Below, piece by piece: positions 5,774 through 58,572 of a stretch of DNA of 64,000 nt. Position numbers and translations under genes: made by a program. The DNA lies in assembly GCA_963555985.3 (NCBI GenBank), contig OY820591.1:3008001-3072000 (forward strand). Reading direction: 5' to 3'. Position 1 is the first letter of the stretch, and every line of letters begins with the position of its first letter. This stretch comes from Dehalococcoidia bacterium. Its GTDB lineage: Bacteria > Chloroflexota > Dehalococcoidia > Bin125. The notes beneath the pieces were generated by a model. The model made no database searches, was not told the origin of the DNA, and saw nothing but the letters and a program-made list of their open reading frames with translations.

Positions 5774-5842
5774 GGTGGTTGGGGGTGGGTATGACGGAGT
5801 TTGGCGGGTGTTGGGGTGTCTGTGCTGGGTGTGGCGTTCTCA

Positions 5843-5884
5843 CCCCCTCTGTCACTTCGTGACATCTCCCCCTTGAGGGGGAGA
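5843..5884. repeat. REP-like palindrome, family B
   Basis: CCCCCTCTGTCACTTCGTGACATCTCCCCCTTGAGGGGGAGA. Confidence 0.85.
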
Positions 5885-5939
5885 GGGGATCAAGGGGGAG
5901 ATTTTGGGGAGGTGGGATGGGGGTTGGTGCTGGTCGCGG

Positions 5940-7047: not shown

Positions 7048-7319
7048 GGGAACCATCTCCAGCGGCTGAGAGCGCCGGTCATCTCACTCTTTGCACCGGA
7101 CCGGCAGTCGGAGCCGCCTCCGCAGGGTTGCTGCGGCGATAGCGACCAGTTAGAGCGTATCGGCGGGTTGGTCTAGCCGCAATCGGAGACTGATGCGTAA
7201 CTCCCGAGTTGTCGAATTTCCGCTATTCCGACTCAATGAGGAGTCCAGTGCTGAGCAGATACGGAGACTGGATTCCCGCGTTCGGAGAGCTTTGCACAAT
7301 CCCCGATCTGAGCGTTTTG

Positions 7320-8336
7320 TCATTCTTGCGAAAGCGAGAAGGTGGGTTCACATTGCAACTGCAACAACTGCCGACCGAAGACTTCGGCCGGGGAGAGGTA
7401 GTCGAGGCACTGGCGGGGGGTGTTGTTGTACAACTGCAGCACTTCGATCAAACGCGCGAGGCTGAGTTGGGCGAGGTCGAGCCGGCGCGGCAGGACCCGG
7501 CGCAGGCGTCCGATCGCATTCTCGATCCCGCCCTTCTGCCAGGGCGCGTAGGGGTCGCAGAAGAAGGTCTCCACGCCCAGCCGGTGCAGTTCGTAGTGGC
7601 GGGCGAACTCGGTCCCGTTGTCGAACGCGACCGTGCGCCGCAGGGCGGGCGGCCAGGCGCGGAGCAGGCTGAGCAGCAGGCGCGCGACCGGAGCGGCCGC
7701 CTTGCCCGCCACGGGCAAGCCCACGAGCAGCCGCGAGGAGCGCTCGTGCAGCATCAGCAGGAGCGGACCGCCGCGCCCGAAGAGCATCAGGTCGGCCTCC
7801 CAGTGACCGGCTTCGAGCCGCCCGGCGGCCGCCGCCGGGCGCTCGCTCAGGGGCCGCCGCAGTTGGATGCGCTCGACCGAACTGCCGCCTTTGCGCCCGC
7901 GCCAACCGCGTTTCGCCTTGCGCCGCGGCAGATACTGGCGCCAACCGCCGCCGCGGCCGGGCTTGGCCCGCGAGGCTTGGGCGTAGATGAAGCGGTAGAT
8001 GCTCTCGTGCGAGATCACCGGCGCGCCCGCCTCGCGCGCCAGCCGGCCTGCGACCTGTTGCGGCGAGAGCCCGCGGGCCAACTCGCGCAGCACCCGCGCG
8101 CGCAGCTGATCGTCGCGTTCCAGCCGCGAACCGCGCCAGCGCCGCGCCTGGGCCTGTTGCTGGGCGTAGTCGGGACGGTAGCCGTCGCGCGCCGTGTTGC
8201 GTTTCAGCTCTCGAGCAATCGTCGATGGCGAGCGATCCAGAGCTGCAGCGATCTGCCGGATCGAGCGCCCCTCGGCCTGTAAGCGGGCAACCGCGCATCG
8301 CTCCGCCAGGTCCAACTGCGTGTACTGCGCGCCCAT
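7320..8336 (-). CDS. IS30-family DDE transposase
   Basis: N-terminal HTH (SIRQIAAALDRSPSTIARELKRN), ISHESIY, GHWEADL, FDNGTEF, PWQKGGIENAIGRLR. Confidence 0.95.
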   Translation of the reverse strand: MGAQYTQLDLAERCAVARLQAEGRSIRQIAAALDRSPSTIARELKRNTARDGYRPDYAQQQAQARRWRGSRLERDDQLRARVLRELARGLSPQQVAGRLAREAGAPVISHESIYRFIYAQASRAKPGRGGGWRQYLPRRKAKRGWRGRKGGSSVERIQLRRPLSERPAAAAGRLEAGHWEADLMLFGRGGPLLLMLHERSSRLLVGLPVAGKAAAPVARLLLSLLRAWPPALRRTVAFDNGTEFARHYELHRLGVETFFCDPYAPWQKGGIENAIGRLRRVLPRRLDLAQLSLARLIEVLQLYNNTPRQCLDYLSPAEVFGRQLLQLQCEPTFSLSQE

Positions 8337-8380
8337 GGTCTCACCTCAATCATCTGTCGCACTTCGTCTGTGAGACTAGG
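7341..8380 (-). mobile_element. IS30-family insertion sequence, copy 1 (1040 bp)
   Basis: Near-identical to 27515-28554; flanked by GAA/GAA 3-bp repeat (7338-40, 8381-83); imperfect terminal inverted repeats. Confidence 0.92.
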
Positions 8381-8408
8381 GAATCCACGTCTCACTCGAT
8401 ACGCCGCA

Positions 8409-8518
8409 TGGATTCCCGCTTTCGCGGGAATGACGGAAACGGGAGTTTGCAAAGGCCTCCCTGCGCGGGAATGACGGAATTTGGGATTAGGCGCAGGCCT
8501 CCGTTCGCGGGGATGACG
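8409..8518. repeat. Cluster of REP palindromes (TGGATTCCCGCTTTCGCGGGAATGAC and partial copies)
   Basis: One full and two half GCGGGRATGAC units in tandem. Confidence 0.85.
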
Positions 8519-21061: not shown

Positions 21062-21176
21062 GTCATACCCGCGCTTGCCGTGGAGCCTGTCCCCGTCCTG
21101 TGGGATATCTCGCTGTGATCTGCACCGTCGTCGCGCACACGGCGAGATTGCCGCGGCGGAGCGCGGCAATGACGGA
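21062..21176. repeat. REP doublet (REPIN-like), family A
   Basis: GTCATACCCGCGCTTGCC...ATCTCG spacer CGAGATTGCCGCGGCGGAGCGCGGCAATGAC; spacer resembles 48360-48395. Confidence 0.8.
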
Positions 21177-21370
21177 AACATCGACTCGCGCAAAGCTCTC
21201 CGCAAGCAGGGGCAACAGAGGAGGTCCGGCCACCCCCAACCCAACTGTGACCCCCGCAACATCTCGCCCACAATCCAGATCCGCCACAGAACGCCCGTCC
21301 GTATACGATCAACCCCGCTCACCCCCGCGACCGCAACCGACGGAACCCCCCATGACCGCCAACACCGAAT

Positions 21371-22666: not shown

Positions 22667-22690
22667 AGTGTAGCGGAGGGATTGGAGGTC

Positions 22691-22735
22691 TCCGTCATTG
22701 CCGCGCTCCGCCGCGGCAAGCGCGGGTATGACGGA
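22691..22735. repeat. REP family A, fused doublet lacking spacer
   Basis: TCCGTCATTGCCGCGCTCCGCCGCGGCAAGCGCGGGTATGACGGAG. Confidence 0.8.
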
Positions 22736-27416: not shown

Positions 27417-27514
27417 CACTCAGCACCTCTCCCTCTGGAGACCTGCGCGTACATCATTGATCGTCGGGATTCGATCTGTCTTCGTGCTTGCTGAGCAGAT
27501 AGCCGGATGGATTC

Positions 27515-28554
27515 CCTAGTCTCACAGACGAAGTGCGACAGATGATTGAGGTGAGCCCATGGGCGCGCAGTACACGCAGTTGGACCTGGCGGAGCGATGC
27601 GCGGTTGCCCGCTTACAGGCCGAGGGGCGCTCGATCCGGCAGATCGCTGCAGCTCTGGATCGCTCGCCATCGACGATTGCTCGAGAGCTGAAACGCAACA
27701 CGGCGCGCGACGGCTACCGTCCCGACTACGCCCAGCAACAGGCCCAGGCGCGGCGCTGGCGCGGTTCGCGGCTGGAACGCGACGATCAGCTGCGCGCGCG
27801 GGTGCTGCGCGAGTTGGCCCGCGGGCTCTCGCCGCAACAGGTCGCAGGCCGGCTGGCGCGCGAGGCGGGCGCGCCGGTGATCTCGCACGAGAGCATCTAC
27901 CGCTTCATCTACGCCCAAGCCTCGCGGGCCAAGCCCGGCCGCGGCGGCGGTTGGCGCCAGTATCTGCCGCGGCGCAAGGCGAAACGCGGTTGGCGCGGGC
28001 GCAAAGGCGGCAGTTCGGTCGAGCGCATCCAACTGCGGCGGCCCCTGAGCGAGCGCCCGGCGGCGGCCGCCGGGCGGCTCGAAGCCGGTCACTGGGAGGC
28101 CGACCTGATGCTCTTCGGGCGCGGCGGTCCGCTCCTGCTGATGCTGCACGAGCGCTCCTCGCGGCTGCTCGTGGGCTTGCCCGTGGCGGGCAAGGCGGCC
28201 GCTCCGGTCGCGCGCCTGCTGCTCAGCCTGCTCCGCGCCTGGCCGCCCGCCCTGCGGCGCACGGTCGCGTTCGACAACGGGACCGAGTTCGCCCGCCACT
28301 ACGAACTGCACCGGCTGGGCGTGGAGACCTTCTTCTGCGACCCCTACGCGCCCTGGCAGAAGGGCGGGATCGAGAATGCGATCGGACGCCTGCGCCGGGT
28401 CCTGCCGCGCCGGCTCGACCTCGCCCAACTCAGCCTCGCGCGTTTGATCGAAGTGCTGCAGTTGTACAACAACACCCCCCGCCAGTGCCTCGACTACCTC
28501 TCCCCGGCCGAAGTCTTCGGTCGGCAGTTGTTGCAGTTGCAATGTGAACCCACC
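27515..28554 (+). mobile_element. IS30-family insertion sequence, copy 2 (1040 bp)
   Basis: Flanked by TTC/TTC (27512-14, 28555-57) inside REP TGGATTCCCGCCTGCGCGGGAATGAC. Confidence 0.92.
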
Positions 28555-28575
28555 TTCCCGCCTGCGCGGGAATGA
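27559..28575 (+). CDS. IS30-family DDE transposase
   Basis: Identical to 7320-8336 protein except terminal residues (FPPARE vs FSLSQE). Confidence 0.95.
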   Translation: MGAQYTQLDLAERCAVARLQAEGRSIRQIAAALDRSPSTIARELKRNTARDGYRPDYAQQQAQARRWRGSRLERDDQLRARVLRELARGLSPQQVAGRLAREAGAPVISHESIYRFIYAQASRAKPGRGGGWRQYLPRRKAKRGWRGRKGGSSVERIQLRRPLSERPAAAAGRLEAGHWEADLMLFGRGGPLLLMLHERSSRLLVGLPVAGKAAAPVARLLLSLLRAWPPALRRTVAFDNGTEFARHYELHRLGVETFFCDPYAPWQKGGIENAIGRLRRVLPRRLDLAQLSLARLIEVLQLYNNTPRQCLDYLSPAEVFGRQLLQLQCEPTFPPARE

Positions 28576-28647
28576 CGGAAATGGGGATTACGCGCAGGTC
28601 TCCTCTGGGGGAGGCCACGGGCTGCACGCTCAGCTTCGGAAACGCTG

Positions 28648-31360: not shown

Positions 31361-31377
31361 GCTGCGGAGGTTCCGGA

Positions 31378-31426
31378 CCCCCCTCTGCCGCTGCGCGGCA
31401 TCTCCCCCCGCAGTGCGGGGGGAGAG
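31378..31426. repeat. REP-like palindrome, family B
   Basis: CCCCCCTCTGCCGCTGCGCGGCATCTCCCCCCGCAGTGCGGGGGGAGAG. Confidence 0.85.
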
Positions 31427-32910: not shown

Positions 32911-33060
32911 GGGTTCCTCTCCCTGGCGGATCGGTCGTCCGCCCAATTCTGCGCTGTGCAGCATGACCCCGCCCCACGGCGGGCAACGTGTTTGAGGCTA
33001 TCGGATAGGTGGATAGCGCGCTAGGGCAGAGACTTGCGCGGGGGCATTTGGGCGAGTCGC

Positions 33061-33108
33061 CTCCCCTGTCGCTATGTGACATCTCCCCCCCGCAGTGCGG
33101 GGGGAGAG
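33061..33108. repeat. REP-like palindrome, family B
   Basis: CCCCTGTCGCTATGTGACATCTCCCCCCCGCAGTGCGGGGGGAGAG. Confidence 0.8.
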
Positions 33109-48294: not shown

Positions 48295-48329
48295 TTCCTG
48301 TACACATCGGCGGTCGCCAATCCGAGACT

Positions 48330-48428
48330 CCGTCATTGCCGCGCTCCGCCGCGGCAATCTCGCTGCGTTCTGCACCGACGTCCGTGCTCGACTCAGCGAG
48401 ATACCCGCGGCAAGCGCGGGTATGACGG
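48330..48428. repeat. REP doublet (REPIN-like), family A
   Basis: CCGTCATTGCCGCG..CGCGGCAATCTCG spacer CGAGATACCCGCG..CGCGGGTATGACGG. Confidence 0.88.
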
Positions 48429-49843: not shown

Positions 49844-49893
49844 CCTCTCCCCCCGCAGTGCGGGGGGAGATGTCACGAAGTGACAGAGGGGGG
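49844..49893. repeat. REP-like palindrome, family B (reverse orientation)
   Basis: CTCTCCCCCCGCAGTGCGGGGGGAGATGTCACGAAGTGACAGAGGGGG. Confidence 0.85.
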
Positions 49894-49979
49894 TCCGGCA
49901 AGACACCCGATAGACCGCCGCTGCAAGCGATCGCTAGGCTCACTCCACCCCGCGCCGACCGCGCCAGCGAGAATCCGCC

Positions 49980-58455: not shown

Positions 58456-58572
58456 ATCTCCCCCTCAAGGGGGAGATGCCCCAACGGGGCAGAGGGGGTG
58501 AGAACACCGCAGTCCTCTCCGGTACACCAGCTCTCCTCCTCAGTTAAGGGGAGGTCACGCAGCAACAGAGGG
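58456..58572. repeat. REP-like palindromes, family B (one full, one degenerate)
   Basis: TCTCCCCCTCAAGGGGGAGATGCCCCAACGGGGCAGAGGGGG and CTCCTCCTCAGTTAAGGGGAGGT..AGAGGG. Confidence 0.75.

Follow-up and report, generated by a model that had tools for sequence, protein, structure and literature searches.

Two near-identical copies of an insertion sequence (IS) of the IS30 family lie in a 64,000-nt stretch of the Dehalococcoidia bacterium assembly GCA_963555985.3 (OY820591.1, positions 3,008,001-3,072,000), which is the whole piece of DNA analysed here and is called the window. Both copies split a short hairpin repeat of the host at one and the same base, facing the same way relative to the repeat, and the transposase open reading frame (ORF) of each finds its stop codon in that repeat. 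The features of the two loci are listed below in window coordinates.

7319-7340, minus strand: larger part of the hairpin repeat split by copy 1, TTCTCGCTTTCGCAAGAATGAC in IS orientation, containing one copy of the duplication (7338-7340)
7320-8336, minus strand: transposase ORF of copy 1, 338 amino acids (aa), with its final six codons (FSLSQE) and TGA supplied by target DNA
7341-8380, minus strand: IS copy 1, 1040 bp, from the repeat scan and the genome copy search
8381-8387, minus strand: smaller part of the repeat split by copy 1, TGGATTC in IS orientation, containing the second copy of the duplication (8381-8383)
8409-8434, plus strand: intact partner hairpin TGGATTCCCGCTTTCGCGGGAATGAC of the doublet, an example of an unoccupied target
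27508-27514, plus strand: left part of the repeat split by copy 2, TGGATTC, with the duplicated TTC at 27512-27514
27515-28554, plus strand: IS copy 2, 1040 bp, with ends CCTAGTCTCACAG... and ...GTGAACCCACC
27515-27544, plus strand: left inverted repeat, with a -10-like TAGTCT at IS positions 3-8
27559-28575, plus strand: transposase ORF of copy 2, 338 aa, with its final six codons (FPPARE) and TGA (28573-28575) from the target
28525-28554, plus strand: right inverted repeat, within the coding region, with a -35-like TTGCAA at -18 to -13 from the tip
28555-28576, plus strand: right part of the repeat split by copy 2, TTCCCGCCTGCGCGGGAATGAC, with the second TTC at 28555-28557

The two copies differ by a single base, at IS position 42, and lie in inverted orientation, so that the window repeat scan reports them as 99% complementary arms. 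In IS orientation they share the layout TGGATTC-CCTAGTCTCACAG...GTGAACCCACC-TTC[C/T]CGC....GAATGAC, with TTC on both sides of each copy (GAA on the plus strand for copy 1). In silico excision of copy 1 together with one TTC yields the hairpin GTCATTCTTGCGAAAGCGAGAATCCA, 21 nt from the partner hairpin TGGATTCCCGCTTTCGCGGGAATGAC, and the two form a head-to-head doublet. The terminal inverted repeats are imperfect, matching at 17/30 positions with tips CC and GG; a typical member of the clade matches at 17/24. In both copies the ORF begins at IS position 45, runs past the final base of the IS without meeting a stop, and ends at the GAA-TGA of the flanking repeat six codons further on. The earlier note on this DNA had described two 1040-bp copies with TTC duplications, poor terminal repeats (about 16/27, tips CC and GG), a doublet restored by removing copy 1, and an ORF of 338 aa with no stop inside the element and the target-encoded tails FSLSQE and FPPARE; its coordinates and its description are correct, and the doublet was reproduced.

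The copy-2 product matches the NCBIfam model transpos_IS30 (NF033563) over residues 38-309, scoring 217 bits (E 3.2e-64) where the curated cut-off is 80, and carries an N-terminal helix-turn-helix (Pfam HTH_38, residues 5-47, E 3.5e-15). Residues D182, D239, and E272 are invariant in an alignment of five sequences (A1: the transposase and four relatives) and probably constitute the catalytic DDE triad. D239 and E272 are 33 residues apart, and in the IS30 family the E typically follows the second D at a distance of about 33 residues. A length of 1040 bp, a single ORF, and imperfect terminal inverted repeats are likewise in keeping with this family, whose members are about 1.0-1.25 kb long with terminal repeats of 20-30 bp, as is a duplication of 2-3 bp.

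The host assembly (G000; 3.33 Mb in 11 contigs) contains ten full-length copies that differ from one another by 0-1 nt, and their comparison fixes the ends of the IS and shows the 3-bp duplication. Nine of the ten lie at GGAT-T[C/T]-IS-TTC-CCGC..GCGGGAATGAC, at the identical base and in the identical orientation, and all nine encode a 338-aa transposase ending at the TGA of the repeat. At two of these nine the left triplet is TTT and the right one TTC. The remaining copy (C1:2308130-2309169) has no hairpin beside it: it is inserted in unrelated, non-repeat DNA, flanked by a duplicated AAG, and its ORF extends to 408 aa. The repeat is thus the target rather than part of the element, as one copy exists in non-repeat DNA with its own duplication, as copies differing by 0-1 nt are flanked by different hairpin variants (CCGCCTGCGCGG, CCGCTTTCGCGG, CCGCCTACGCGG, CCGCCTTCGCGG, CCAGCTTTCGCTGG, and CTCGCTTTCGCAAG), and as most of the 216 oriented hairpin sites in the genome carry no IS. 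The earlier note had named movement of the flanks with the element as a finding that would overturn its reading; with flanks that vary and an off-target copy lacking the hairpin, no such movement was seen. The off-target copy is inserted in frame within another coding region, and its read-through tail (..FVVEVRSPNDA..LGWLVDP..) presumably resembles Uma2/DUF820 endonucleases.

The preference for this site is well beyond chance. With 216 oriented hairpin+GAATGAC sites among ~6.7 million position-and-strand choices, a random insertion would reach this position and orientation with odds of ~3e-5, against an observed rate of 9/10. The mirror arm of the hairpin shares TTCCCGC and is at least as common in the host genome (CATTCCCGC 253 times, GATTCCCGC 195 times) but is never occupied. 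A preference for the 4-nt-loop subtype of the hairpin was also considered in this genome. All nine occupied sites are of this subtype, yet so are 155/216 of all sites, and the signal was discounted as too weak for this reason.

Homologues of the element were found in four of 40 related genomes (G022, G019, G007, and G018). In G022, where identity is 84%, all four copies lie at TGGATTC-IS-TTCC[C/T]GCCTGCGC[G/A]GGAATGAC; at 62% identity, 7/7 copies in G019 lie at GGGTTC-IS-TTCCTGCCTGCGCAGGAATGAC and 6/6 copies in G007 at GATTC-IS-TTC... G018 holds a single broken fragment (79% identity) with two in-frame TAG codons. A wider scan with one genome per species gave more than 565 matching stretches, of which the best 80 were kept, with identities of 59-65% except for one of 84%. 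By record title these best 80 are mostly Dehalococcoidia or Chloroflexota metagenome-assembled genomes, with other hosts including Binatia and Nitrospirales chromosomes and alphaproteobacterial contigs. Some matches lie on contigs of 1.5-4 kb whose binning is not trustworthy. On two such short contigs, titled Hyphomonadaceae (L063) and Oleiharenicola (L068) and assigned to different phyla, the IS is the same and its right flank identical; one or both are probably mis-binned. When the phylum was sampled evenly, a member of the clade was detected at E <=1e-90 in 15/401 genomes and 6/218 genera.

The pooled set comprises 106 sites from 40 genomes or records, with L040 excluded as the same place as L013. 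A hairpin is present in the right flank at 87/106 sites (35 genomes or records), and 74 of those 87 combine a 4-nt loop with TGAC. An in-frame stop follows after exactly six codons at 84/106 sites, a perfect 3-bp duplication is present at 92/106, and the mirror-arm configuration occurs at 0/106. The duplicated triplet tracks the repeat variant of each host and is TTC, TAC, TGC, or TCC. Five sites (L086, L091, L108, L113, and L117) retain a single half of the repeat and are apparently rearranged.

Clean insertions outside the repeat make up 7/106 sites, each with its own duplication, and the duplicated triplets differ by site (AAG, GAG, GGG, ATG, TTG, and ACC). The 74 canonical targets were used to build a scoring matrix. 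Compared by it with 3634 nearby windows, three of these seven sites take ranks 1, 12, and 12 (top 0.3%), and further ones rank 156, 559, and 893 of 3634. The off-target site in the host genome is unremarkable, at rank 22106 of 31336. The earlier note had taken copies at non-repeat sites, or at random positions and orientations, as evidence against its proposal. Copies of the former kind do exist (one of ten in the host, seven of 106 overall). For its central proposal, an IS30 lineage specific for site and orientation, there is strong support from 9/10 copies in the host, 4/4, 6/6, and 7/7 in three relatives, and most of 79 further loci.

The copies of G019 show additional variation. In six of seven (L020, L024, L028, L031, L034, and L036) a stop precedes the protein match, which covers the query from residue 66 onwards. 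The length is 1047 bp in five of these six and 1035 bp in L036, while the intact L014 is 1037 bp. The six resemble a defective form of the element that went on multiplying, perhaps through mobilisation in trans. Left flanks are shared by L024 and L028 and by L014 and L034.

The target can be named more precisely than the "REP" (repetitive extragenic palindrome) of the earlier note. In Neisseria, according to Chenal et al. 2025 (PMC11893778), the NTS is CGTCATTCCCGCGMAVGCGGGAATCYRG, an extension of the dRS3 repeat, which is bound as single-stranded DNA by SsnA, a 94-aa GIY-YIG nuclease; in several phyla, ssn genes have NTS-like hairpins, termed SRM, on their flanks. The pattern CGTCATTCCCGCGMAVGCGGGAATCYRG has 102 matches with <=2 mismatches in G000, while its reversed control has 0, making the repeat an NTS/SRM-type hairpin. 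One of these matches, at G000:C1:3016408-3016435, is the reverse strand of the partner hairpin at 8409-8434. The genome also encodes a 95-aa single-domain GIY-YIG ORF (PF01541, 60 bits; G000:C1:84736-84954) with inverted hairpin doublets on both sides. The host repeat fits the published 28-nt pattern, and an NTS-gene-NTS arrangement is present around this putatively Ssn-like GIY-YIG gene of ~95 aa. Comparison of the small GIY-YIG protein with PDB and NCBIfam returned no Ssn entry, and its only PDB relatives were UPF0213 proteins.

This identification bears on what insertion may do to the repeat. PMC11893778 calls the cytosine just 3' of the palindrome the most crucial for binding and the bases upstream of the palindrome important for cleavage. 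Read in the direction of the NTS, it is the 3' arm that the IS interrupts, and the palindrome is parted from the cytosine just after it, so an occupied repeat is probably no longer an Ssn site. The conserved TGAC of the host repeat corresponds to the bases upstream of the palindrome.

Several further observations concern the nuclease-repeat pairing. In G007, copy L019 (G007:C1:704050-705042) lies in a hairpin directly upstream of a GIY-YIG-like gene, and its open-ended transposase ORF runs into that gene, giving the tail ..AYILASRPHGAIYT.. A second small GIY-YIG ORF in the host (a 141-aa open frame, G000:C1:2090400-2090615) is flanked by GTCATTGCCGCG.. and GTCATACCCGCG.. hairpins, and a second hairpin family (..GATTGCCGCGGCGGAGCGCGGCAATGACGG) occurs in the window at 21137-21187, 22680-22724, and 48329-48368. 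There are apparently two pairs of nuclease and repeat in the host genome; the second hairpin family showed no IS copy.

Taken together, these data are best explained by an active IS30-family element whose DDE transposase selects a host NTS/SRM-type hairpin as its landing site, a reading given a probability of about 0.8. The family, the ends, the duplication, the specificity for site and orientation, and the open-ended ORF are directly visible in the copies. Insertion duplicates the TNC with which the 5' arm begins (GGA-TTC-CCGC-loop-GCGGGAA-TGAC), in a constant orientation that puts the right IS end beside the hairpin. As the right inverted repeat lies within the coding region and the ORF is without a stop, translation crosses the hairpin for six codons to the TGA of TGAC. 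By analogy with IS30 and IS1655, transposition may proceed by copy-out-paste-in via a circle or dimer with abutted ends. With a 3-bp spacer, such a junction would form the candidate promoter TTGCAA-N17-TAGTCT, its hexamers 17 nt apart. In the clade the end hexamers are TTGAAA in 56/79 right ends and TAGACT in 40/79 left ends, again giving N17 if the spacer is 3 bp; this candidate is read from sequence and is not evidence of activity. The N-terminal helix-turn-helix is predicted to recognise the double-stranded target. The rule of one orientation points to recognition of asymmetric flanks, and orientation may thus be dictated by TGGA upstream and TGACGG downstream.

A number of observations weigh against this reading or limit its detail. 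Logan contigs of four public runs contain no circle junction and no empty site, and hence no intermediate; these contigs break at the IS ends (27510-27516 and 28554). The bases read by the transposase are inseparable from those which the repeat conserves for its own reasons. The point from which the insertion site is measured is also inconsistent between lineages. In one genome, the hairpin at L044 is 2 nt shorter than at L059 and the insertion lies 2 nt further left, so that the distance to the TGA stays at 18 nt and the TGA remains in frame; in G007 the hairpin is 2 nt longer, the insertion stays at GATTC, and the distance to the TGA is 20 nt. L044 and G007 thus disagree on whether the left or the right arm sets the insertion point. 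Finally, 14/106 sites lack a perfect duplication, for which recombination between copies is the proposed explanation.

Two simpler bases for target choice were considered and set aside. The first is that the target resembles the ends of the IS, as in the inverted repeat targeting of IS30. In most clade members the right tip, when reverse-complemented, does contain TGGATTC, like the left half of the target. This candidate was dropped, on a reading of the sequences alone, because the TGGATTC-bearing tip is constant across host repeat variants and the insertion point lies inside the motif, not beside it. The second is palindromic symmetry around the duplicated triplet; inspection showed no such symmetry that holds for both the TTC and the TAC variants.

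The role of the borrowed stop is a separate question. It seems fairly probable that the missing stop is a by-product of a reliable target and not a requirement for activity, the internal stop having been lost because such a target left no pressure to keep one. In G007, five copies with 0-2 differences over 1037 bases occupy a repeat variant with a 6-nt loop, in which the TGA is out of frame. Their ORFs are 341, 395, 405, 430, and 477 aa long with tails of 10-146 aa, and as the copies are near-identical they must have spread recently without the stop of the repeat. Copies in alphaproteobacterial bins lie in ..GGGGACGAC repeats (..GACGAC) that have no TGA, and read through for 65 to 161 codons or more. 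The TGAC is moreover conserved in the host repeat where no IS is present.

The strongest alternative is that the borrowed stop is an adaptive coupling, in which only insertion at the correct base and in the correct orientation yields a fully active transposase and off-target copies disable themselves. We regard this as unlikely, although several findings favour it. No member of the clade at >=59% identity has a stop inside the element, in contrast to two plasmid relatives at ~40% identity, which do; the stop falls after exactly six codons at most pooled sites; and the shift of L044 preserves the frame. The off-repeat copies L046 and L111 still have a TGA at +19-21, at equal distance, which counts against a mere by-product and could mean that the stop is selected. 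The host off-target copy, at 408 aa against 338 aa, likewise fits a coupling. The spread of the G007 element without an in-frame TGA, the long read-through of the ..GACGAC copies, and the retention of TGAC in repeats lacking the IS all speak against it. A fresh off-target copy would furthermore be visible whether its protein works or not, and selection on the stop does not explain why mirror insertions are absent from all 106 sites. Since selection at the protein level cannot hide fresh mirror-arm copies, the strict orientation is best attributed to target choice itself. The earlier note had proposed that only on-target insertions give a correctly terminated transposase; this is literally true in the host genome but finds no support as a design principle.

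A further alternative, that the element inserts near-randomly and persists only in harmless repeats, is very improbable. The repeats are intergenic and presumably neutral, and off-target insertion does occur, with one copy in a coding region (C1:2308130); survival alone would however permit any intergenic position in both orientations, whereas one position and orientation is found at 87/106 sites. Still less credible is that the hairpin halves belong to the element or that the IS spreads by homologous recombination through the repeats, for although the flanks look alike at first sight and some G019 copies share longer left flanks, the six right-flank hairpin variants on nearly invariant copies, a 3-bp duplication that marks transposition and varies by site, the seven clean off-repeat copies, and homology arms of only 7 and 22 nt already refute it for practical purposes.

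A broader model extends the preferred reading of a hairpin-selecting transposase. It may be that a DDE clade found across phyla uses the hairpin of another selfish or domesticated system, the NTS/SRM of Ssn, as a universal safe landing pad without a guide RNA or helper protein. The flanks would be read for orientation, the open ORF would serve as a sensor separating short-tailed active copies from long-tailed weakened ones, and insertion would destroy the Ssn site. As a whole this model is doubtful at present.

The closest known relatives in behaviour are IS30 of E. coli and IS1655 of N. meningitidis, which share with the present element the transposase family, a length of ~1 kb, a single ORF, and a 2-3 bp duplication. 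In PMC9333248 and PMC12288879, these elements are described as using defined, nearly palindromic hot spots as well as inverted repeat targeting (PMC9333248), circle and dimer intermediates, and junction promoters, termed Pjunc (PMC12288879). The present element differs in using an abundant host hairpin, which it enters at the base of a single arm instead of the centre of the palindrome and always in one direction, and in lacking an internal stop. Plasmid-borne relatives within the IS30 family have <=45% identity to its transposase.

Homing to host repeats is itself established for other families. Tobes and Pareja 2006 (PMC1525189) list the IS3, IS110, IS4, IS256, and IS5 families as REP-targeting, and not IS30; IS1655 is found near REPs only weakly there (2/13 and 2/6 copies). 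Examples include IS1397 and ISKpn1 (IS3), IS621, ISPpu9, ISPpu10, and ISPa11 (IS110), and ISRm22 (IS4). Common to them is a fixed position within the palindrome, which is restored on removal of the IS, termed "type 1 association" in that paper. In the present host, 9/10 copies show the same position with restoration on removal, and so not strictly 100%. Unlike this DDE element, IS110 uses a different type of enzyme and an RNA guide.

A stop codon supplied by the target also has precedents. The transposase ORFs of IS870 (Agrobacterium vitis), ISMt1, IS1547, and IS1110 are likewise without a stop and are completed by the target, with IS870 building TAG from its CTAG target, as cited in PMC13630536. 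The present stop differs from that of IS870 in lying 18 nt into the target, beyond the hairpin, and in not being kept in all sublineages. IS1239 of Streptococcus pyogenes is a member of the IS30 family. It too draws C-terminal residues from flanking DNA, but there the frame was opened by a 1-bp deletion and the tails vary (PMC13630536), whereas the constancy of the target keeps the present tail almost unchanged.

A literature search whose scope excluded ISfinder/TnPedia and subscription journals found no paper on IS30-family targeting of REP, dRS3, or NTS. PMC11893778 covers the repeat and the nuclease and not an IS that targets the repeat, with 0 occurrences of the words IS30 or IS1655. Repeat-homing and a target-supplied stop are thus each known, while the IS30 family and an NTS-type repeat are not yet linked in print. 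To this the present genome contributes a natural experiment of ten copies including one off-target, and the analysis adds the G007 counter-example and a direct test of the target as an NTS-type repeat.

The IS30 family thereby joins the transposons that home to host repeats, and naming the target as NTS/SRM ties together two kinds of repeat-associated elements in several phyla. A one-protein DDE transposase that uses one base and one orientation of a ~28-bp site offers a manageable system for studying how a transposase reads the orientation of its target, and tools for site-directed insertion might be developed from it. In annotation, it accounts for transposase genes that overrun their element and for hairpin repeats that appear split.

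The window contains other repetitive DNA. An unrelated repeat of ~50 nt (CCCCCTCTGTC.CT.CG.GACATCTCCCCC..) occurs in both orientations in at least six copies, which the repeat scan places at 2836-2888, 5830-5885, 31373-31426, 33054-33102, 49845-49902, and 58457-58511. Between 34827 and 36452, three blocks are repeated at a spacing of 862 bp with 74-82% identity, which suggests two diverged paralogous genes in tandem.

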